12,934 nucleotides of DNA, taken from positions 1 through 12,934 of the forward strand of contig JBHLMQ010000073.1 of NCBI GenBank assembly GCA_048938005.1, given 5' to 3'. Shown in pieces: positions 774 to 12,071 of this stretch. A model generated the notes under the pieces. It was not told where the DNA came from and did not search any database. It saw only the letters and a program-made list of their open reading frames with translations. Positions within the stretch are counted from its first letter, which is position 1. Every line of letters begins with the position of its first letter. This DNA comes from Promethearchaeota archaeon. GTDB taxonomy: Archaea; Asgardarchaeota; Lokiarchaeia; Sigyniarchaeales; SOKP01. Both the position numbers and the translations under genes were made by a program.

Positions 774-2576
774 TTAAGGTATTTGTAATGCATGAGAAAA
801 TTCATGAGTAAATCTTGGATGGATAGTTAATTCAATGTATTTAACTCGATTGGCGATACTCTCAGCAATGGATCGTTGCTCCTTTGATAATAATGCAAGT
901 TTCGCTCCTGTTCCAGCAGCATTTCCCACTTGTACAAAGCGATTCAAAGGAATAGAAGGAAACAGGCCAATTTTAATAGCACTCTCCACATTTATGTAAG
1001 TACCAAAAGCTCCAGCGACTATGATTTTATCTATTTTCTCCTTACTAATACCACATTCATTAAGTAAAATGTTAATCCCAGTACGTATCGCGGCTTTAGC
1101 TAGCTGTATTTCACTTATATCGTGTTGATAAATGATTATATCTTGTTCGATTCCCGTATTATGCTTTGGAACCAAAAGAAATTCTCGAATATTTTTGGTT
1201 TGACGAACTAAATCGTGATTTTGTAATCTTCCACGCGAATCTATTATTTTTTGTTGACGTAATTGGCTAATTGCATCTAAAATACCAGATCCACATATAC
1301 CAATTGGAGCAACATCTCCAATAACTTTTAAAGCAACTTTATTATTTCTGATTTTTACTTTTTCGATTGCACCATTACTTGCTCTCATACCATGTTTGAT
1401 TCCGGCACCCTCAAAAGCAGGGCCAGAAGCACAAGAAAGACTGGTGATATCCCCTTTCACCGATAATGCCACTTCTGTATTAGTACCAATATCAATACCG
1501 ATAACATTTTTATTCGTTTTATAAATTTCTGTAGCAAGAAGCATAGCTACATGATCTGAACCTATAAAACCAGCTATATTTGGTAAAAAATGAATATATG
1601 CACCTTTAGCAACATTAAGCCCGAGATCACGGGCTTTTACATCTAAAGAATGACTAATAGCGGGTATATAAGGAGCTTGCCCTAATTGTTTTACAGGTAA
1701 ACCAATAAAAAGGTGATGCATTGCCGTGTTGCCAACTATAGTTACATCTACAACTTTTTCTATACTATCGGTTAATTCTTGAATTAATTTATTAAGAATA
1801 TTTAGAAGACATTTCCTCAATTGCTCATTCCCATTTTCCATGGCATAACTTATACGACTCATTACGTCCTCACCAAAAAAAATCTGGGGATTCGTTGCTC
1901 CTTTAATACCTATATTTTTTCCAGAATACAAATCCACTAAATAAACAGCCAGCTTAGTGGTACCAATATCAATTGCGATCCCATATAAGTCTTGATCTGG
2001 CTCATTAATCCCAATAACTTCATCATTTCGAATTAAAACTGAAATCTCCCTATTTAATTTGCGCAACCTAGATGATAGATTTTGTAAAAATGAAATATCT
2101 GGTATTAGATTCTTTAATCCATATTTATCGTCTAGCGATTTATATATATTTTCCCAATCAGATAATGGATTTTCCAAAGAAGGCTCTTGTAATTTTAACT
2201 TATATTTATTGATTATAGGGTTCAAAATTAAATGTGGTTCTTTTCCTAATAATTCTAATCGTTGGACAGCTGTCAGTGATATAAGGGGAATTTCGACCTT
2301 TATATCACTTAATACGCGCATAGTACATGCTAATCGATATTTGGATTTAATTTCTTCCTCACTTAAAAGATTTTTTTCATTTTTATTAATTGAGGATACA
2401 TTTCCATCAACGATACGTATTTTGCAACGACCACAAATTGCTTTTCCACCACAAAATGAAGCTATGGGAATCCCCACTTTTTCTGCAGCCTCGAAAATAG
2501 TTTTTCCTTTTATACAGGGAATATTAAGTCCAATTGGTTCAAAATAAATATTATAACTCATATATTCATCCTCCAT
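774..2576 (-). CDS. ATP-dependent reductive activator of corrinoid proteins (RACo/RACE, ASKHA ATPase with N-terminal [2Fe-2S] ferredoxin domain)
   Basis: N-terminal CGGKAICGRC...RLAC [2Fe-2S] motif. ASKHA motifs AIDIGTT, GEDVMSRI, GNTAMHHLF, DIGTNTE, SGPAFEG, GICGSG, QLAKAAI and AGAFG. The ATG abuts the upstream stop (TAAATG). Confidence 0.93.
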   Translation of the reverse strand: MEDEYMSYNIYFEPIGLNIPCIKGKTIFEAAEKVGIPIASFCGGKAICGRCKIRIVDGNVSSINKNEKNLLSEEEIKSKYRLACTMRVLSDIKVEIPLISLTAVQRLELLGKEPHLILNPIINKYKLKLQEPSLENPLSDWENIYKSLDDKYGLKNLIPDISFLQNLSSRLRKLNREISVLIRNDEVIGINEPDQDLYGIAIDIGTTKLAVYLVDLYSGKNIGIKGATNPQIFFGEDVMSRISYAMENGNEQLRKCLLNILNKLIQELTDSIEKVVDVTIVGNTAMHHLFIGLPVKQLGQAPYIPAISHSLDVKARDLGLNVAKGAYIHFLPNIAGFIGSDHVAMLLATEIYKTNKNVIGIDIGTNTEVALSVKGDITSLSCASGPAFEGAGIKHGMRASNGAIEKVKIRNNKVALKVIGDVAPIGICGSGILDAISQLRQQKIIDSRGRLQNHDLVRQTKNIREFLLVPKHNTGIEQDIIIYQHDISEIQLAKAAIRTGINILLNECGISKEKIDKIIVAGAFGTYINVESAIKIGLFPSIPLNRFVQVGNAAGTGAKLALLSKEQRSIAESIANRVKYIELTIHPRFTHEFSHALQIP

Positions 2577-3479
2577 TTAGAATATTTTGAAAATTGGATG
2601 GGTATTTGTTATTGGCCTTAATCCCCTCATTCGGTTTCCATAAGCAATGAGTCCATCAATTGTTGCCATTGCTGGATATACCCAACTTGCGTTTTTTATG
2701 GGACCATAGAGGCAAAAATCCGCTCCTAATAACCGTGTTATAGATATTACTGACGATGCCGCTGCTTGAAATGATGCCTTTCCCAATTGTTTCATTTTCT
2801 CCCAGGTATAGAGCGCATTAGCAGGAGCGCACCCTGTTGGATACCCGAATTTTTCTTTTATTTCACGAATGGCTAAAGATACCCAACTTACACTGGCGAC
2901 ATCCATCACTCCGGTGTCGATAAATATGTTTTCAATATCCGCTAATTTAGCAGCTCGTATCAAATTTTTTTCTAATAATTCTATTTTTCTTTCGGGTTTC
3001 ATCGCCTTCATACTAAAAGCAAGTAAAATAGCACTTTTTACTCCACACTCTTTTAAACAATTCAATTCTTTATCAGTGTGATCAACTCCGATACTGTTAT
3101 ATATCAATCGTGGAATTAATTCAGTACCGGCAAAATATTTTATTGTTTCAATCCTTACCTTCTGAGAAGAAGAATCAACAATTATTGGTGCAGAAGTTTG
3201 TGATGCTACGAATTCAATATATCTAATGAGAGCTTCTGCTGTTTCTCCAATTACATCAATAAATCTTGAGTTTCCCGTAAATTTCGCTATTTTTTCTTCA
3301 TTTTTCAATAAAATTTTTGCTTTTTCTTTGTCAAAAATCCCTTTTAATGGATCTTGAACAATTTTATCTCCTGCGAAAAATAAACTACCGATGAGTACTG
3401 TAGGTCGTTCCCATGGTTGTCCTCCAATCTCAACTCCTGCTATATTGTAAATTTTCTGATCTTTCAAAAATCTCAGCAT
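2577..3479 (-). CDS. mtrH: MtrH-family methylcorrinoid:tetrahydropterin (H4MPT/THF) methyltransferase (stand-alone, MtgA/MtoA-like)
   Basis: MtrH-typical N-terminus (IAGVEIGGQPWERPTVLIGSLFF), plus IYNSI, FIDTG, GYPTGCAPAN and GADFCLYGPI. AAGGTG RBS-like sequence upstream. No other mtr subunits are present. Confidence 0.9.
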   Translation of the reverse strand: MLRFLKDQKIYNIAGVEIGGQPWERPTVLIGSLFFAGDKIVQDPLKGIFDKEKAKILLKNEEKIAKFTGNSRFIDVIGETAEALIRYIEFVASQTSAPIIVDSSSQKVRIETIKYFAGTELIPRLIYNSIGVDHTDKELNCLKECGVKSAILLAFSMKAMKPERKIELLEKNLIRAAKLADIENIFIDTGVMDVASVSWVSLAIREIKEKFGYPTGCAPANALYTWEKMKQLGKASFQAAASSVISITRLLGADFCLYGPIKNASWVYPAMATIDGLIAYGNRMRGLRPITNTHPIFKIF

Positions 3480-3534
3480 TCTTGAGCACCTTAAAATAAT
3501 CCCTTGCTTCTAATAACGGAATACTAAAATTTGA

Positions 3535-4734
3535 TTATACAGGTATTTCTTTAGCTGTTTTTTCTTTCCATTCCTTAAATGTTTCGCGTTTAGGTAATTT
3601 GAATTCGACATCATCAAGATTATCAGATATTGGAAAGCGACCGTATGTATGTGTAGCAGCAATTGCAGCATGTATATGGTCAGGTGGGGCATCAGCAGGT
3701 ATATTTGCTAGAAAAATTGTCAAATTATGATCTCTGGCAAATGTATCAATGAATCTTTTAATATTGTCCACAATTTTTTCCACAGGTCCATCTCGTAGCA
3801 AACGACCATTAATTCCAGCTGCGATTGTGGGTTTGACACCTTTTTCTCGAAATTTTACAGTATAGTCTCTAACAGGTTCAAGTGGATATTCATGCCATCG
3901 TCCCATACCTAGAAATAGAGAAGGAATATCTCCTTGACTTGCTATTTCTATGTCAAATGAGTCATGAAGTATCTTAGTATCAAACTTTTCCAACCGTTCT
4001 TCACAGTAATCACCACTAATATTCATAGCCATTACTCCAAATTTTTTAGCTTTTTCGTTTATACGATTATTATAAGGCACAACCCACTCTTGCATGTCCT
4101 TAATAGATAGATTTGGAATACAAGCCCAGGCATCAGCACCTATAGCCATCATAATACCACAATAATCGTTTTGGGCTTTAAGATAAGGTTCTAATACATC
4201 ATCAACAATGAATGTATATATTTCATGGGCGAATTCAGGTTGCTTTCTCATGAATTTTATTAATCTTGGATATGAACACAGTCCTACAGCCATACTAAAC
4301 GGAGAACAGAATATTCCTTGAACTGTTCCATATTCCATATTTAAATTAATGCTTTCTAATGCATAAGGTAGCCTCCCATCTTTATACCAGTCAACTTCCT
4401 TTTTCTTAAGTTTGGATAAATCTTCAGGTTTTTTAATGAGGGTGTCACGAAAATCTATTGTTGGCATTGATTTTTCACCGTAAACCATTTTACCACCTAA
4501 AGCTTCTATCTCAAAATTATAAGCATCAGCAAAAGCAGCACATGTATCCATATTATAATAATTTGCTACATCGACCGATGTCTCAATCAAACAATTAGCA
4601 TCGTAATAAAATTTTTTAGCTGGGACACCAGCCACTGTCATGGAATGGTCATGCATCTGAGCAGCGATTTGAATCCAAGGTTTTTCCCCGCTTATAAGAA
4701 AACCAGCTAATCCTTCTATTTTTTCATCGGGCAA
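3535..4734 (-). CDS. Uroporphyrinogen-decarboxylase/MtaA/CmuA-fold corrinoid-dependent methyltransferase (probable substrate-specific MT1)
   Basis: 399 aa with YNFEIEALG, GRLPY, SPFSMA, LLRDGPVEKI and IPADAPPDHIHAAI, typical of the URO-D-like TIM barrel. TTG start with GGAGGTGG RBS (4741-4748) inside the end of the upstream gene. Sits in a corrinoid operon. Confidence 0.82.
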   Translation of the reverse strand: MPDEKIEGLAGFLISGEKPWIQIAAQMHDHSMTVAGVPAKKFYYDANCLIETSVDVANYYNMDTCAAFADAYNFEIEALGGKMVYGEKSMPTIDFRDTLIKKPEDLSKLKKKEVDWYKDGRLPYALESINLNMEYGTVQGIFCSPFSMAVGLCSYPRLIKFMRKQPEFAHEIYTFIVDDVLEPYLKAQNDYCGIMMAIGADAWACIPNLSIKDMQEWVVPYNNRINEKAKKFGVMAMNISGDYCEERLEKFDTKILHDSFDIEIASQGDIPSLFLGMGRWHEYPLEPVRDYTVKFREKGVKPTIAAGINGRLLRDGPVEKIVDNIKRFIDTFARDHNLTIFLANIPADAPPDHIHAAIAATHTYGRFPISDNLDDVEFKLPKRETFKEWKEKTAKEIPV

Positions 4735-4735
4735 T

Positions 4736-5395
4736 TTAGGCCACCTCCAAGGGTTTTTCTATAATTTTTTTAGCTTTTTCTACTGCATCAAATGCATCTT
4801 TCCCCCATGCATCAGCTCCTATTTCATCAGCAAATTCTTGAGTACAGGGGACTCCACCAATCATGACTTTAACATCGTTACGAATTCCATTTTCTTGAAG
4901 AGATTTGAGAATTTCTTTCATTTCCAACATAGTGGTTGTCATATAACAGCCAAGTCCTAAAATGTCGGGATTATATTCTTTTACTTTTTCTAAAAAGGTC
5001 GCTACTGGTATATCTTCTCCAATATCTATAACTTCAAATCCACCACTTCTCAACATAGCTTTAACCATTAATTTACCTAAAGTATGCATATCCCCTGCAA
5101 CTGTACCAATCACAACTCTTCCTGATCCTTTAAATTCCTGGGGTGATAATTTTGGTTCAATAACTTCCATTGCCATTCTAAATGCTTCTGCGCTCATCAC
5201 TATATCCGGTTGGAAATATTCATTCCGTTTCCATAATTCTCCAGCTTCTTGAATCCCAGGGACAATACCTTCCTTCATTATATTGATTGGTGCTTCACCA
5301 TTATCGAGAGCTTTCTGGGCCAATTCAAAAGCTAAATCATCATCACCTTTTAATACAGCTTCTTTTAAATCCTTTAAAATATTTGAATTAGTCAT
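4736..5395 (-). CDS. Methyltransferase cognate corrinoid (B12-binding) protein, MttC/MtbC/MtoC family
   Basis: N-terminal four-helix cap. B12-binding motif GTVAGDMHTLGK (DxHxxG), plus GLGCYMTTT and VMIGG...FADEIGADAW. AAGGAGG RBS upstream. Confidence 0.95.
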   Translation of the reverse strand: MTNSNILKDLKEAVLKGDDDLAFELAQKALDNGEAPINIMKEGIVPGIQEAGELWKRNEYFQPDIVMSAEAFRMAMEVIEPKLSPQEFKGSGRVVIGTVAGDMHTLGKLMVKAMLRSGGFEVIDIGEDIPVATFLEKVKEYNPDILGLGCYMTTTMLEMKEILKSLQENGIRNDVKVMIGGVPCTQEFADEIGADAWGKDAFDAVEKAKKIIEKPLEVA

Positions 5396-6316: not shown

Positions 6317-7102
6317 TTGATAATGGCTAAACATAAAGGAAGGAGAATGGAGGCTTTTTTCGGATTATTTGGAGCAATGTTTCTTATTATTATATTACCT
6401 TTAACAGCATATCTCACCCCTGGCTATACTCCATTGGAGCAGATGATAAGTAGCCTGGGGTACGGTAGAGCAAAATCTTTATTCAGTATTGGTTTTGTAG
6501 TTTCTGGTTCACTGTTAATCCCTTTTTATATTTATTTAGAAAGAGAACTAATAAATATAAAAGAAGTAGTTAGAAGAATTGCTACAGGAATTGCAATCAT
6601 TACTAACGTAGGTATCGCTTTAGTGGGTATAATACCTGATGAAACTATTATTGATGCTTTTAAGATATTTCATGGTATAGTCGCAGTAGTTAGTTTTACA
6701 GGATCATCAGTTTATATTGTACTGTATAGTGTATTAATGTATCAAGGTCCTAAATCTAAATTGTATAGAGGGCCAATTTTTAAAAGAATTTTAGCTTATT
6801 TTGGATTTTTATTAGGAATTTTAATGGTAATATATCTATTTGCACAGGTTCCTTTATTTGAATGGATTCTAACCATCCTTATGCTAATCTGGGTTCTAAA
6901 TGCAGCGATACAATCAATTTCTTTTAAATTTTTTAACATACCTGGAATGTATTATAAACGTTCTCAATTTCCTGAGGCTTTAGAACGATTTGAAAAAGCA
7001 TTTCAAGTTTTAGATAATCTTGGAATGAAAAATGATCCTATAGCAGAGACACTTCAAAAAAACATTGATTATATTAAGACTCAAATAGAAAAAAGTCAAT
7101 GA
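6317..7102 (+). CDS. DUF998-like multi-pass membrane protein with C-terminal TPR-like helical tail (start TTG 6317 or ATG 6323)
   Basis: About 6 hydrophobic segments. PGYTPLEQMISSLG and FHGIVAVVSF resemble DUF998 motifs. The soluble tail GMYYKRSQFPEALERFEKAFQV is TPR-like. Confidence 0.7.
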   Translation: MIMAKHKGRRMEAFFGLFGAMFLIIILPLTAYLTPGYTPLEQMISSLGYGRAKSLFSIGFVVSGSLLIPFYIYLERELINIKEVVRRIATGIAIITNVGIALVGIIPDETIIDAFKIFHGIVAVVSFTGSSVYIVLYSVLMYQGPKSKLYRGPIFKRILAYFGFLLGILMVIYLFAQVPLFEWILTILMLIWVLNAAIQSISFKFFNIPGMYYKRSQFPEALERFEKAFQVLDNLGMKNDPIAETLQKNIDYIKTQIEKSQ

Positions 7103-7368
7103 AATACAGCCATAATTAAAGTTGCATCTCTATTCAAAGAATACTTATCATTAAAGATATAGATCAAATCTGAGAATAAAATTTAATAAATTAATCATTA
7201 TTAGACTATCAGATTTAATGAGAGCAATATGAAATTCTATAATAATTTAATTTTAATAATATAGATTATTTACTTTATCATCAAATATTACTAAGAATCT
7301 CTTAGTATAAAGCATAAGAAATTAGATCTTTAAAAATTAGGAGGTTAGGCCTAACAAAGGTGGTTGAA

Positions 7369-9339
7369 TTGTCTGAAAAACAGACCAATGAAGAAGAAAA
7401 TCAACCAAGAATAGGTGTGTTCGTGTGTCATTGAGGTATTAACATTGCGGGAATACTAGATATTCCAAAAATACTAGAAGAAATTAACAAACTGGATAAT
7501 GTTTGGGCTTATCCATATCTATCTTTATGCACTGAGGGCGGATCTACTGTAATCAAAGAAAAACATGAGGAGTTTAAATTCGATAGGGTTTTGGTTGCTG
7601 CTTGCACGCCAAGAACTCATCAACCAGTTTTTCATGCGATATTAACAGAGATGGGGTTACCTCCAAGATATTTAGAATTTGTCAACATACGAGAGCATTG
7701 TTCTTTCGTGCATCAAGCTCCAGAGGTTCGTGAGAAAGCTACTCTAAAAGCTATTGAATTAATCAAAGCTGGGATTGCCAGATCAAAATTATTAGAAGAT
7801 GTTCCAACTAAGACTGTTCCAGTAGAGCCTGCTGCTCTTGTAGTCGGTGGAGGTATTGCAGGATTATCTGCAGCAATCGATTTAGGTGATGCGGGATACA
7901 AGGTATATTTAGTAGAAAAGAATACGACGATAGGAGGACGTATGTCCCAACTTGATAGAACTTTTCCAACAGATGATTGTTCAATATGAATCTTGGGACC
8001 AAAAATGCTTGAAGCTAATCGCCATCCAAAAATAGAAATCTTATCATACAGCGAAATTGACGAAATAGATGGATATATTGGCAATTTTAAAGTTAAGGTT
8101 AGAAGAAAAGCCCGATTTGTCGATGAAAAAGAATGTACAGGTTGCGGATCATGCGCTGAAGTGTGTCCTGTATACACGAGCAATTACTTCGATGAACACT
8201 TATCAGCTAGAAAAGCTATTGATATTGCTTTTGCTCAAGCAGTTCCAGCAATTTCGCAACTTGATAGAGAAGTATGTATTGAATGTTTTGCATGTGTTGA
8301 TGCATGCGAACAACAAGCTATAGATTTTAGTCAACAAGATAAAATTGAGGAGCTTAAGGTCGGTACAATAATAATTGCTACAGGGTGGGACCTCTATAAG
8401 GGAGATGATTATGGTTATGGTATTTATGATAATGTAATCAATCAAATAGAATTAGAGAGAATTCTTGCTCCTAATGGTCCAACTTATGGTCATTTGAAGC
8501 GTCCTTCCGATGGCAAACGCCCTACAAAAGTATTGTTCATTAATTGCGTTGGATCAAGAGATATAAATAAAAATGCTCATTGCAGTGTTATCTGCTGTAA
8601 TTTATCCCTTAAAAATTCTAAATTAATCAAGTCAGAGTATCCTGATTCACAAATCGTTTGTTGTTATATAGACATGAGATGCGCTGGAAAAGACTATGAA
8701 GAATACTATAGAAGATCCCGAGATGCTGGAATAATATTTGTTAAAGGTATGGTTGGTAAAATTGAAGAGGATCCTTTAACAAAAAACCTTAAAGTACAAT
8801 TTGAACCAGTTGGAACTAATAGTGTAGTTTCTATGGAATTTCATATGGTTGTATTATCATCAGCATCATTACCATCTCAAGGTACGATAGAAATTGCTAA
8901 GGTATTAAACATGGAAAAAAGCCCTGATGGTTTCTTAAAAGAATATCATGCTCGGCTTGATCCAATTAGTACCAAAGTACCTGGTATTTACATTTGCGGT
9001 TCTGCTCAAGGTCAAAAAGAGATTGATAAAACAGTGAGTCAAGCGAGAGGAGCGGCATCAGTAGCAGGTATCCCAATGAGTAAAGGAGAATACACTATGG
9101 AATTAATCCGAGCTACAGCATCAGATGAACGCTGCGCTAAATGCTATAAATGTATAGAAGCCTGTCCATATACTGCTATTTCGGTAAATGAAAAAGGAAA
9201 TCTTGTTGTGGATCTAATTAATTGTCGGGGTTGCGGAACATGTGCGTCTTTATGTCCATCAAAAGCGATTGAACTAACGTACTTTAGAGATGATCAATAT
9301 ATGGCATTAATAGATGAATTATTACCAATTGAGGAGTAG
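7369..9339 (+). CDS. hdrA: Heterodisulfide reductase subunit A (FAD/Fe-S), selenoprotein with two in-frame UGA (Sec22 at 7432-7434, Sec207 at 7987-7989), 656 aa
   Basis: Single frame from TTG 7369 (AGGTGG RBS; GTG 7360 is an alternative start) to TAG 9339, interrupted only by TGA in RIGVFVCH-U-GINIAG and TFPTDDCSI-U-ILGPKM. Both are conserved Cys/Sec positions of HdrA. Also AACTPR, NIREHCS, GGGIAG (FAD), CVGSR...CSVICC and four ferredoxin CxxCxxCxxxC motifs. The ORF track splits this into 7591-7989 and 7993-9339. Confidence 0.95.
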
Positions 9340-9352
9340 AGAGGTAAGTAAA

Positions 9353-9811
9353 ATGGGAGAAGATAATGATATTAAAATAATTGTATATGCTTGCTGGAAA
9401 TGAGGATATGGTTCAGCAGATATGGCAGGTACCATTCGTGCACAATATCCCGATTCGATAAGAATTGTTTTGGTGCCATGTACTGGTCGTGTCGGATCTG
9501 ACTTAATAATGCGAGCGTTTGGTAGGGGTGCTGACGGTGTGGTCATTAATGCTTGATATCCGGGTGAATGTGATTATGAGACGGGAAATTACTATGCATA
9601 TCGACAAGTTGAATACATTAAAGAAATCTTAAAAGTTGTTGGAATAAGCCCTGAAAGAATTAAAATAATATATTGCACTGCAGCTGAAGGCCAGAAATTT
9701 CAAATAGAAGCTACAGAAATCGATAAAAATATTCGCAAATTAGGACAAAGCCCTTTACGTCCAAAAAAGAGCACGCCTAAAGAAAAAGCTAAAGCGAAAG
9801 CTGAAGCTTAA
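9353..9811 (+). CDS. mvhD: MvhD/VhuD [2Fe-2S] subunit, selenoprotein with two in-frame UGA (Sec17 at 9401-9403, Sec68 at 9554-9556), 152 aa
   Basis: Absent from the ORF track. Translation: MGEDNDIKIIVYACWK-U-GYGSADMAGTIRAQYPDSIRIVLVPCTGRV...GADGVVINA-U-YPGECDYETGNY...GISPERI...CTAAEG...LGQSPL. This matches the MvhD motifs CxxC-Y-xADxAG, CxGR and GADGV..GCxxGxCxY. GAGGT RBS at 9341-9345; TAA stop. Confidence 0.95.
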
Positions 9812-9819
9812 AAAATTTA

Positions 9820-9892
9820 ATGTGTTTACTGATGAGACTGAGTTAAAAAAATGAGAACTCAGTTGAGGAAATGGGAGCACCATATGACACAT
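9820..9892 (+). promoter_or_regulatory. Eukaryote-type SECIS element in the 3' UTR of hdrA-mvhD
   Basis: ATGA (9832-9835), G, ACTGAGTT (9837-9844), loop AAAAAAATGAG, AACTCAGT (9856-9863), T, GA (9865-9866), G. This gives an AUGAN/NGAN core, a perfect 8-bp helix plus G-U, and an A-rich apical loop. A lower helix is possible via GTGTTT/GAGCAC or ATGTGT/ACACAT. The core starts about 20 nt after the mvhD stop. Confidence 0.8.
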
Positions 9893-9904
9893 ATAAAAGG
9901 TTTA

Positions 9905-9937
9905 ATGAAAATTAATAAAAAATTTTAATAATTTGAA
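9905..9937 (+). promoter_or_regulatory. Possible second tandem SECIS-like hairpin
   Basis: ATGA (9905-9908), AAATTAATAA, loop AAAATT, TTAATAATTT, GA (9935-9936). Nine of ten positions pair between the AUGA and GA cores, but all pairs are A-U. Confidence 0.35.
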
Positions 9938-10003
9938 TCAAAAAATTTGGGAAATTTAAGAAAAGAGTAAATAAATCAAGTATATATTTTGAGTTGGAAG
10001 TAC

Positions 10004-11143
10004 ATGGAAGCAATGGCAGAATACCTGATAAAAATTGAAGATTTTTCTAAAATCTTAGCAACTCTATTAAAAGAAAAAGTAGTAGATAAAATTATTGGCG
10101 CTCAATTGAGAGTCGATAAAAAATCTGGTAATATAGATAGATTTACTGTTCAACCAAAATTAGCAGAAAAAGAAGAGGATGTGAAGGATTTTCCACTAAC
10201 ACCTCTAATTGCTTTTGGATATGCAAGAACAGATTCAGCTTCAAAATTCTTGCATAAATCAGTAGCAGGTGCAATGAAAGAGAAAGTGGGACTTATCGCA
10301 CGCCCTTGTGATACAAGAGCATTAATAGAACTTGCCAAAATCAAGCAGGTAAATCTAGATAATCTATTTATAATTGGTATCGAAGATAGAGGTATGTTAC
10401 CTAAAGCAGGACGAGAAATGAGATCAGTAAAGGATGTTGATGCTACTAAAATAGTTAAGGAAAAGGTAGGTGATAAAGGTCTTGTTGTTAAAATGGAAGA
10501 TGGAAGCACAAAAGAACTAAATCTGACTGTGGCAGAGAATTGTTTGAGATGTTATCGAAAAATTCCTGTTGTTGCTGATTTAACAGTTAGTGATCTTGGA
10601 ATTTCAATCGATTCAGATGAGATTATCTTAAAAGTATATTCAGATAAAGGAAGTGATATTTTAGATAAATCAGGTATCAATAAAAAATCACTTCCAGATA
10701 AGGAGAAAAAGACACATACAGATAAATATAATGAAATTATTGAAAAAGCGAAAGAAAAAAGAGAAAAAGATTTGGCAGAATGGGAAAAATTATCACAAGA
10801 AGAAAAAATTGCTGAATTACTGAAGTGCACAGCATGTAACACATGTATAAGAGGGTGTCCAGTTTGCTACTGCGTGGATTGTATCCTAATGAAGAAGAGA
10901 AAAGAGAAAACAATAGATGCAGCAACCTATCAACTCACAAGAATTGCTCACGATGCTGACAGATGCGTTGAATGCGGTAATTGCGATAATAATTGCCCTC
11001 AGAATTTACCATTATCGCTCTATTTTCAATCATTAAATGAAGCTTTTAAGGAGAAATTCAAGTATGAAGCAGGAATGTCTCTTGAGGATATTCCATTTAG
11101 GTCTGGAAAGGCAATATCCCAGATGGAATTAGAAAAAACATAA
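10004..11143 (+). CDS. FdhB/FrhB-like Fe-S protein (F420-dependent dehydrogenase beta-subunit family with C-terminal 2x[4Fe-4S]); start 9989, 10004 or 10013
   Basis: GLIARPCDTRALIEL, ENCLRC...VADL, CTACNTCIRGCPVCYCVDC and RIAHDADRCVECGNCDNNCP match the motif order of methanogen FdhB-type proteins. Lies downstream of hdrA-mvhD. Confidence 0.8.
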   Translation: MEAMAEYLIKIEDFSKILATLLKEKVVDKIIGAQLRVDKKSGNIDRFTVQPKLAEKEEDVKDFPLTPLIAFGYARTDSASKFLHKSVAGAMKEKVGLIARPCDTRALIELAKIKQVNLDNLFIIGIEDRGMLPKAGREMRSVKDVDATKIVKEKVGDKGLVVKMEDGSTKELNLTVAENCLRCYRKIPVVADLTVSDLGISIDSDEIILKVYSDKGSDILDKSGINKKSLPDKEKKTHTDKYNEIIEKAKEKREKDLAEWEKLSQEEKIAELLKCTACNTCIRGCPVCYCVDCILMKKRKEKTIDAATYQLTRIAHDADRCVECGNCDNNCPQNLPLSLYFQSLNEAFKEKFKYEAGMSLEDIPFRSGKAISQMELEKT

Positions 11144-11342
11144 AGAAAAAATTTTAAATCGTTTATTTTAATATTTTTTTCTGTTTTAATTATACGACCA
11201 AAATATTTTTGAAATTCTTGTTTTATCCTTTACTACTACAACATTTTAATATCTTGTGATTTGGTTAATCTCTTGGTAAATAAAAATTAGAATGATTTAT
11301 TAAGATCAAATATTTTTAATAAATAATTCACCAATGTGATGA

Positions 11343-12071
11343 CTTATTTCGATATTTAGAAAAGTTAGAAAAGATATTAGAATTGGACTAGTATTTGGGT
11401 TTTTTGGCGCATTATTAATTCTAATTTTTCTTCCATTAACAGCATTTATTACCCCGGGATTTACCCCTTTAAGAGATCCTATAAGTTCTTTAGGGCATAG
11501 CAATGCAAATTCGTTTTATAGTATTGGGTTAGTAATGGGGGGTTCATTATTAATCCCTTTTTATATCTATTTGGAAAGAGTATTATTAAATATAAAAAAA
11601 AGTGTTAGAGGACTTACTATGATAATAGCAATTTTTACTAATGCATGTGTTGCTCTAGTTGGAATACCTCCAGACCCATTAAATATGGAAGCTTTTAATG
11701 CATTTCATGCATTTGTAACTATAGTTGGTTTTTTAGGAACTTCAATCCACATTGTGTTCTATAGTATAATGATGCACAAAAGTTCTAAGTCTATAATGCC
11801 TGTAGGTCCAATATTTAAAAAATACTTAGTGTTTTTTGGAATTTTTATTGGAGTTTTATTTACAATATTTCTCATCACGCGATATTCAATATTAGAATGG
11901 ATAGTAGGAGCTCTTATAGTATTTTGGGTCTTAATTACGGCATTACAAGGTATTTCATTTAAGTTTTGTAAGACCCAAGGAGGATCCTATAATAAATCTC
12001 AAGATCTCGAAGTATTACAGCAACAAAAAGACCAAATTCAGCTTATAAAACGTCTTGATAAAGGAAACTAA
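11343..12071 (+). CDS. DUF998-like membrane protein, paralog of 6317-7102; start codon unresolved (possible pseudogene)
   Basis: The frame is open from 11343. Similarity to the first paralog (FGFFGALLILIFLPLTAFITPGFTPLRDPISSLG...GSLLIPFYIYLER) starts about 50 codons before the ORF-track ATG at 11535. There is no in-frame ATG/GTG/TTG in 11343-11534; it is preceded in frame by ATG TGA TGA (11334-11342). Confidence 0.7.
   Translation, partial: LISIFRKVRKDIRIGLVFGFFGALLILIFLPLTAFITPGFTPLRDPISSLGHSNANSFYSIGLVMGGSLLIPFYIYLERVLLNIKKSVRGLTMIIAIFTNACVALVGIPPDPLNMEAFNAFHAFVTIVGFLGTSIHIVFYSIMMHKSSKSIMPVGPIFKKYLVFFGIFIGVLFTIFLITRYSILEWIVGALIVFWVLITALQGISFKFCKTQGGSYNKSQDLEVLQQQKDQIQLIKRLDKGN

Follow-up and report, generated by a model that had tools for sequence, protein, structure and literature searches.

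The window analysed here, 12,934 nucleotides at its full length, is an entire 12.9-kb contig of a 3.72-Mb metagenome-assembled genome (MAG), 30% G+C, assigned to Promethearchaeota, a phylum within the kingdom Promethearchaeati whose name is the current one for the Asgard, or Loki-type, archaea. Two neighbouring genes on its forward strand carry in-frame UGA codons. The first, hdrA, encodes heterodisulfide reductase subunit A (positions 7360-9339, 659 codons, stop UAG; E 1e-208 by phmmer against solved HdrA chains), and its read-through frame contains UGA at codon 25 (7432-7434) and codon 210 (7987-7989). Codon 25 aligns with Cys in solved structures, and codon 210 aligns with the non-standard residue X of 9sfi_A, at a site that is reported in the literature as the canonical Sec position. 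The second gene, vhuD (mvhD), belongs to the FlpD family (9314-9811, stop UAA at 9809-9811; Pfam PF02662, E 2e-41) and contains UGA at codons 30 (9401-9403) and 81 (9554-9556) of its read-through frame, both of which align with Cys of solved MvhD chains. It comprises 165 codons if translation starts at ATG 9314, in which case it overlaps hdrA by 26 nt, or 152 codons if translation starts at ATG 9353, which is preceded by a purine-rich stretch and at which the two genes abut.

The next gene downstream (9989-11143, forward strand) encodes an FrhB/FdhB-like iron-sulfur protein; it has no in-frame UGA and lies outside the element that is the subject of this report. On either side of the hdrA-vhuD-frhB block are genes for paralogous DUF998-like membrane proteins (6317-7102 and 11334-12071, both on the forward strand). 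The similarity of the second of these proteins begins upstream of the table-11 ATG at 11535, so its true start is probably earlier and is not an ATG. On the reverse strand, positions 774-5395 carry a corrinoid methyl-transfer cluster made up of a RACo-type activase with a 2Fe-2S domain, MtrH, a URO-D-family methyltransferase and a B12-binding protein.

A three-helix element in the vhuD 3' spacer

The stop codon of vhuD ends at 9811, and 20 nt separate it from an AUGA motif at 9832-9835, which forms the end of a 9-nt unpaired stretch (9827-9835). The motif leads directly into helix II, in which 9836-9844 pair with 9856-9864 in the predicted fold (9 bp when G9836-U9864 is included, otherwise 8 bp with a G/U beside the core). 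The apical loop at 9845-9855, AAAAAAAUGAG, is 11 nt long, consists of seven A followed by UGAG and fits the published loop rule. Helix II is followed by GA (9865-9866), opposite the GA of AUGA, and the core hairpin from AUGA through GA spans 9832-9866. Since the sequence allows the pairs G9834-A9866 and A9835-G9865, the AUGA/GA core is a candidate kink-turn-like pair of G-A mismatches, in which the two pairs would be tandem and sheared.

Two further helices surround this hairpin. Helix I closes the structure through seven base pairs between 9820-9826 and 9886-9892 (identified by the fold, by covariation and by RNAalifold), while a small 3' hairpin at 9871-9883, found in the fold and by RNAalifold, has a 4-bp stem (9871-9874 with 9880-9883) and the loop GAGCA and is flanked by GAA at 9868-9870 and A at 9884. 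The whole element occupies 9820-9892 of the forward strand as three helices around one junction, and it scores 82.3 bits against the structure model R2 introduced below. An earlier note on this DNA had described the hairpin, with a helix II of about 9 bp and with 9820 and 9892 as its outer limits. AUGA, helix, A-rich loop and GA are all present as described, helix II has the length given, and the two limits are the exact ends of the 7-bp closing helix.

Folding of 9818-9895 with ViennaRNA yielded a minimum free energy structure identical to the centroid, at -17.9 kcal/mol (z-score -3.62), and none of 200 shuffled sequences equalled this energy; the slightly longer segment 9812-9900 gave a z-score of -3.15. 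When the spacer was folded from 9812 to 9988, the only pairing that the centroid retained anywhere in the spacer was that of the element: helix II, the small 3' hairpin and five of the seven closing-helix pairs. The 29-nt hairpin of the window is found in identical form in the related locus L032, where its energy is -8.7 kcal/mol; the published criterion is an energy below -5 kcal/mol.

Conservation and restriction to UGA-bearing genes

Loci related to vhuD come almost entirely from MAGs labelled Promethearchaeota, Promethearchaeia or Asgard candidate phyla, the best at 96% protein identity, and the closest relatives being Promethearchaeota (Asgard) MAGs agrees with the Asgard origin proposed in the earlier note. 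TGA is present at both vhuD sites in all 75 related loci. Because no Cys-only orthologue of the window's vhuD occurs among these 75, the control on Cys-only orthologues was replaced by one on paralogues within the same genome.

Two structure models were used in the searches. R2, whose training took in 23 of the rows from the 74 loci with downstream sequence, finds exactly one match in the window and in each of these 74 loci, on the gene's strand and at the gene's end. It finds no other match at E <=0.01 in the 261,658 bases of the loci, and a calibrated structure model this quiet over 262 kb may be useful in itself. R1 was built from the other sequence clade and from paralogues only, the window's clade being left out. 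All three helices of the window's element are nevertheless covered by the R1 alignment (30.0 bits, E 5e-5), and with its filters off R1 detects no second element below E 1 in the whole window. With default filters R1 missed all elements of the window's clade. Once the filters were turned off it recovered that of the window and seven of the ten relatives examined, the other three (L013, L045 and L061) having E values above 0.01; R2 found them all.

The earlier note had proposed covariation across orthologous loci as a check on the hairpin. A MAFFT alignment of all 81 elements (A1) placed two sequence clades 12 columns out of register, so the clades were aligned apart (A2, A4) and joined through the model (A5). 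In A4, a MAFFT alignment of the 52 orthologous rows that is not fitted to a structure, 98.2% of the cells are paired, and shifting the partners by 1-3 columns lowers this figure to 26-51%; nine pairs show changes on both sides, and helix II has such changes in eight of its nine pairs. RNAalifold recovers the same three helices from A4 unaided. In A3 84.1% of cells are paired versus 65.4% in shuffles, and in A5 89.5% versus 51.7%, all 20 pairs of A5 showing changes in both partners; both of these alignments are fitted to the model structure, which favours pairing. The unpaired nucleotides behave differently from the stems: AUGA is invariant in all 52 rows of A4, and the unpaired AUGA, the A's of the loop, the loop-final AG and the GA are kept across orthologues while the stems covary.

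Across a sample of 151 genomes of the class, R2 matched 133, and within the same family it matched 126 of 126, usually with 5-12 copies each. A tRNA-Sec match was obtained in 77 of the 151, some of them genomes with no R2 match, and many R2-positive genomes gave none, perhaps owing to the tRNA intron reported in print. At least 15 of the 18 class genomes that R2 did not match (G018, G019, G039, G055 and G091 are examples) have a tRNA-Sec match, and these genomes therefore probably contain SECIS variants that lie beyond the reach of R2.

The frequency of such hairpins was determined with a strict pattern, consisting of AUGA, 9 bp with at most one mismatch, an 11-nt loop with at least four A in its first five positions and G in its last, and then GA or AA. 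This pattern occurs at 10 places in the 3.72-Mb genome, at none in the reversed genome, and at 0, 0, 0, 0 and 1 in five block-shuffled genomes. Seven of the 10 places come after frames with in-frame UGA. The places on contig 17 (132883), contig 57 and contig 70 have no credible UGA-bearing gene ending just upstream and no model support, and were rejected; one of the three sits inside a long reading frame. R2 gives nine matches of at least 46 bits in the whole genome, the next reaching only 25.6 bits, and every one of the nine comes after a frame with in-frame TGA. No Rfam family, SECIS families included, matches at the site up to E 10 in a search of the whole window.

An equal presence of the hairpin after Cys-only orthologues had been named in the earlier note as an outcome that would speak against a SECIS; the comparison was run on the FlpD paralogues of the genome, and the element withstood it. 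There are 15 FlpD genes, four with two TGA codons and eleven with none. With filters off, R2 matched all four Sec-type genes at 66-82 bits, just downstream and on the gene's strand, and the element was absent from all 10 Cys-type loci searched in this way; the eleventh Cys-type gene gave no R2 match in the whole-genome search, the one search that covered it. A 19-bit R2 match after a Cys-type FlpD gene (contig 12, 41844-41929) was rejected as chance, since the matched stretch lacks AUGA and falls within an ongoing reading frame.

These results bear on two other accounts of the hairpin. Its position in an AT-rich spacer, immediately behind a stop codon, is one that a generic 3' end hairpin could occupy, which would stabilise or terminate the transcript and take no part in recoding. 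However, there is no terminator-like site in 9300-10300 and no T run after the hairpin, the unpaired AUGA, loop A's, loop-final AG and GA are conserved although the paired positions covary, and the element is confined to the Sec-type genes among the paralogues compared; this account is highly improbable. The second concerns L7Ae. C/D-box small RNAs combine a guide region with a conserved C box (RUGAUGA) and D box (CUGA); CUGAUGA at 9829-9835 is C-box-like, the UGA on the 3' side could pass for a portion of a D box, and the genome encodes L7Ae-family proteins, so the hairpin might be a kink-turn RNA bound by L7Ae for some other purpose, such as a C/D-box-like RNP or translational feedback, that lies near selenoprotein genes by coincidence. 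Yet the base before AUGA is G, A or T in orthologues, from which it follows that the C-box likeness is not conserved and is probably incidental to the kink-turn core. With no Rfam C/D-box match at the site and with nine of nine strong copies in the genome placed after UGA-bearing frames, coincidence is scarcely credible as an explanation.

Relation to known SECIS elements and a possible third arm

In the lokiSECIS of Mariotti et al. 2016 (PMC4989117), AUGA is followed by a stem of 9 bp with an 11-nt loop, and GA comes after the stem. The loop opens with five bases that are mostly A and closes with an ultraconserved G, usually with an A before it. The element is known from that work for hdrA-vhuD, vhuU and prxL genes, and in hdrA-vhuD pairs it is present as a single copy after vhuD. 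The core of the window's element shows no difference from this description, and the setting is likewise the same, with a single element after vhuD, overlapping or abutting genes and no SBP2. Huang, Xiao and Zhang 2024 (PMC11227280) extended this description to a type I eSECIS-like model; of the 1439 Asgard selenoprotein genes in their survey, 85% had such an element, and hdrA and frhD/vhuD had a single one in common. This model has the core GA_[G/A]A, an upper stem of 7-15 bp and an apical loop of 8-20 nt, is without a ministem, and has no highly conserved nucleotides in the lower stem and internal loop across families. The window's element fits it in core, stem and loop, while the junction with a third hairpin lies outside the model.

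The agreement with the lokiSECIS and type I eSECIS-like descriptions extends over the core, stem and loop size, energy, loop bases, UGA gene context, Sec machinery and conservation. We conclude with high confidence that the element at 9820-9892 is a SECIS of this Asgard kind, which would recode the UGA codons of vhuD and most likely those of hdrA. The earlier note had called it a eukaryote-like SECIS, and this call is sustained feature by feature, since core, stem, loop and placement, behind a UGA-bearing vhuD/hdrA pair, match the published Asgard elements. The novelty that the note implied is not supported: the window's element agrees with every published point, so its kind is already known, and both the kind and its hdrA-vhuD gene context were described in 2016 (PMC4989117) and surveyed in 2024 (PMC11227280). 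The importance of this kind of element is that it connects selenocysteine decoding in archaea with that in eukaryotes, a point made in 2016 and broadened in 2024, and the window provides a further clean example from the classic hdrA-vhuD context.

With eukaryotic type I SECIS elements the window's element has in common the AUGA_GA quartet, unpaired apical A's, placement in the 3' untranslated region and a presumed action at a distance. Eukaryotic SECIS elements have a helix II of about 12-15 bp, whereas that of the window has 9 bp; the element further differs from them in having no Rfam match, no SBP2 and a hairpin on the 3' side of the internal loop. SECISearch3 is reported to fail on Asgard elements (PMC4989117, PMC11227280).

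The vhuD SECIS reported for Methanococcus-type archaea and Methanopyrus has an extra stem, AUGA and GAC/AAC (PMC4989117). Like it, the window's element lies in the 3' UTR after vhuD and sets AUGA against GA(C) across a junction closed by an extra stem. There is also a likeness to the methanococcal SECIS with its GAA_A motif, in that the mini-hairpin of the window's clade is flanked by GAA and A. Unlike the methanococcal element, however, the main hairpin of the window has neither the GAA_A bulge nor G-C clamps, and the mini-hairpin has no lower stem of its own.

Beyond the published core, a common frame recurs among the elements. Seven unpaired nucleotides lie between helix I, of 6-7 bp, and the GA of AUGA; on the 3' side, GA is followed by 3-5 further nucleotides, a hairpin of 4-5 bp and then 1-3 nucleotides leading into helix I. 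The loop of the 3' mini-hairpin nearly always contains GCA or GCG. Its stem is invariant within the window's clade, and many other complementary sequences form it in the other clade, in loci labelled Sifarchaeum or Borrarchaeota and in paralogues of the same genome; the three-helix junction recurs in two sequence clades and three selenoprotein contexts. The flanking GAA (9868-9870) and A (9884) are invariant or nearly so in the 52 rows of the window's clade, and the other clade differs. Folding of the 24 nt after the 3' GA in 56 distinct sequences, unfitted, gave a mean of -4.2 kcal/mol as compared with -1.9 kcal/mol for shuffled sequences. A hairpin formed at the same place in most to nearly all of the 56, with 39 distinct hairpin sequences; taken singly, these 3' hairpins are weak (p <=0.05 in 19 of 56).

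The published models stop at the core, the upper stem and the loop, and the third arm is absent from them (PMC4989117, PMC11227280). The main text on lokiSECIS has neither the closing helix nor the GCA-loop mini-hairpin, and a third arm goes unmentioned in the main texts of both papers, the figures or supplements of which may draw it. A literature search for archaeal SECIS elements with a three-way junction returned nothing relevant. The element as it extends over 9820-9892, in the form of three helices, is a possible addition to the published core.

In k-junctions, as reportedly described by Lilley and co-workers, a third helix is inserted on the strand carrying the second GA. At the level of sequence, the window's element resembles kink-turns and k-junctions in its tandem G-A/A-G beside a regular helix and in the location of its third helix on the second-GA strand. 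It departs from them in having seven unpaired nucleotides before GA instead of three, and 3-5 unpaired nucleotides between GA and the third helix. We advance only tentatively, with the balance of probability against it, the proposal that the Asgard type I SECIS is a conserved k-junction-like three-way junction in which the third arm is a second recognition point for the reader. For the choice of constructs in binding and reporter tests, the conserved unit of about 73 nt with three helices offers a guide.

Proposed selenocysteine decoding and further UGA-bearing frames

The genome that contains the window also encodes machinery for selenocysteine. Its tRNA-Sec reaches 61.7 bits, above the cut-off of 47, and the gene for SepSecS adjoins it. 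A SelB-like gene 4 kb from the tRNA-Sec gene scores 231.9 bits, just under the bacterial family cut-off of 242, and a PSTK-family gene and two selD genes with one TGA each are present as well. SepSecS, tRNA-Sec and the SelB-like gene lie within 7 kb on contig 97 (100492-107065), in a cluster that resembles the EFsec/tRNA-Sec linkage reported for Lokiarchaeota. The two selD genes are adjacent on contig 86 (1934-4019, reverse strand), where R2 with filters off gave no match above 17 bits, a result that agrees with published accounts of a distinct, type II-like SECIS for selD.

In the most likely mechanism, the element would form part of the 3' untranslated end of a transcript shared by hdrA and vhuD. 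It would enable a Sec-specific elongation factor to bring Sec-tRNA(Sec) to both UGA codons of vhuD, and the same element would most likely serve the two UGA codons of hdrA, all four being read as selenocysteine and not as stop. The parts recognised would be the AUGA/GA core, the helix with its fixed length of 9 bp and the 11-nt loop rich in A, with the closing helix and the small 3' hairpin framing the core as a three-way junction.

Service to hdrA across the second cistron is proposed on the grounds that the window contains no other element and that the same inference has been drawn in print. The vhuD UGA codons lie 278 and 431 nt upstream of the element and those of hdrA 1845 and 2400 nt upstream, in a separate cistron. 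It might be argued from these distances that the SECIS serves vhuD only, the hdrA UGA codons being recoded by another signal or the hdrA product being truncated or otherwise decoded. Furthermore, hdrA genes can carry an element of their own, as is the case for the hdrA on contig 78 of the same genome, where one lies 11 nt after the stop. On the other hand, neither R1 with filters off (below E 1) nor R2, with its one match, provides a second element in the window; hdrA and vhuD overlap or abut; and in both surveys every such pair has just one element, located behind its second gene (PMC4989117, PMC11227280). Eukaryotic SECIS elements, according to the literature, act over kilobases. A role confined to vhuD is accordingly unlikely, and one element for both genes is the reading we prefer.

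The protein that would read this element has few candidates in the genome. L7Ae-family matches are two only, in open frames of 125 and 143 codons. No SBP2-like gene is found in this genome, and none is reported from Asgard archaea in the main text of PMC4989117. A lokiarchaeal SECIS has been reported to be non-functional in Methanococcus maripaludis (PMC11881835), a failure consistent with a reader, or a required RNA part, that methanococci lack. If the third arm is indeed a recognition point, the reader could be the Sec elongation factor or an L7Ae/L30e-type protein, and an interaction of this kind could account for the failure of the lokiarchaeal element in Methanococcus.

R2 also points to UGA-bearing frames elsewhere in this genome that belong to no known family, and these unannotated, SECIS-linked frames are worth attention. 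Three of them have a single in-frame TGA each and a strong R2 match behind them (46-77 bits), and gave no significant Pfam family: a 308-codon frame on contig 60 (80754-81680, reverse strand), a membrane-like frame of 53 codons on contig 73 (12117-12278, forward strand) and a membrane-like frame of 83 codons on contig 80 (580-831, reverse strand).

A further frame, on contig 17 (134470-134973, forward strand; locus L082:671-1174), has 167 codons and two adjacent in-frame TGA codons (..HAD-U-U-AD..), with an R2 SECIS match of 61.9 bits 8 nt after its stop and no Pfam family. Matches to it were found in 38 of 41 genomes of the family, and all of those listed contain 2-3 internal TGA codons. Homologues in the databases either are truncated at 118 aa or have WW at the site, and Cys-Cys was not seen among the 10 aligned. 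An AlphaFold model of moderate confidence (pLDDT 69.6) finds as its best PDB folds SAMP1 and Urm1 (E 2e-3, TM 0.66 on the target), which share the ubiquitin-like sulfur-carrier fold, and in this model the predicted Sec pair sits at their Gly-Gly end. The frame is a candidate for a selenoprotein family outside the seven Asgard families named in the text of PMC11227280.

Lastly, contig 9 (12830-13072, forward strand) encodes a VhuU-type small hydrogenase piece, with Sec in C-U-x-x-C-x-x-H, after a hydrogenase large-subunit frame of 436 codons. The SECIS of this VhuU-type piece, in which AA replaces GA, is detected by R1 at 41.2 bits but not listed by R2, and the UGA of its AUGA is the in-frame stop, as has been reported for vhuU in print.
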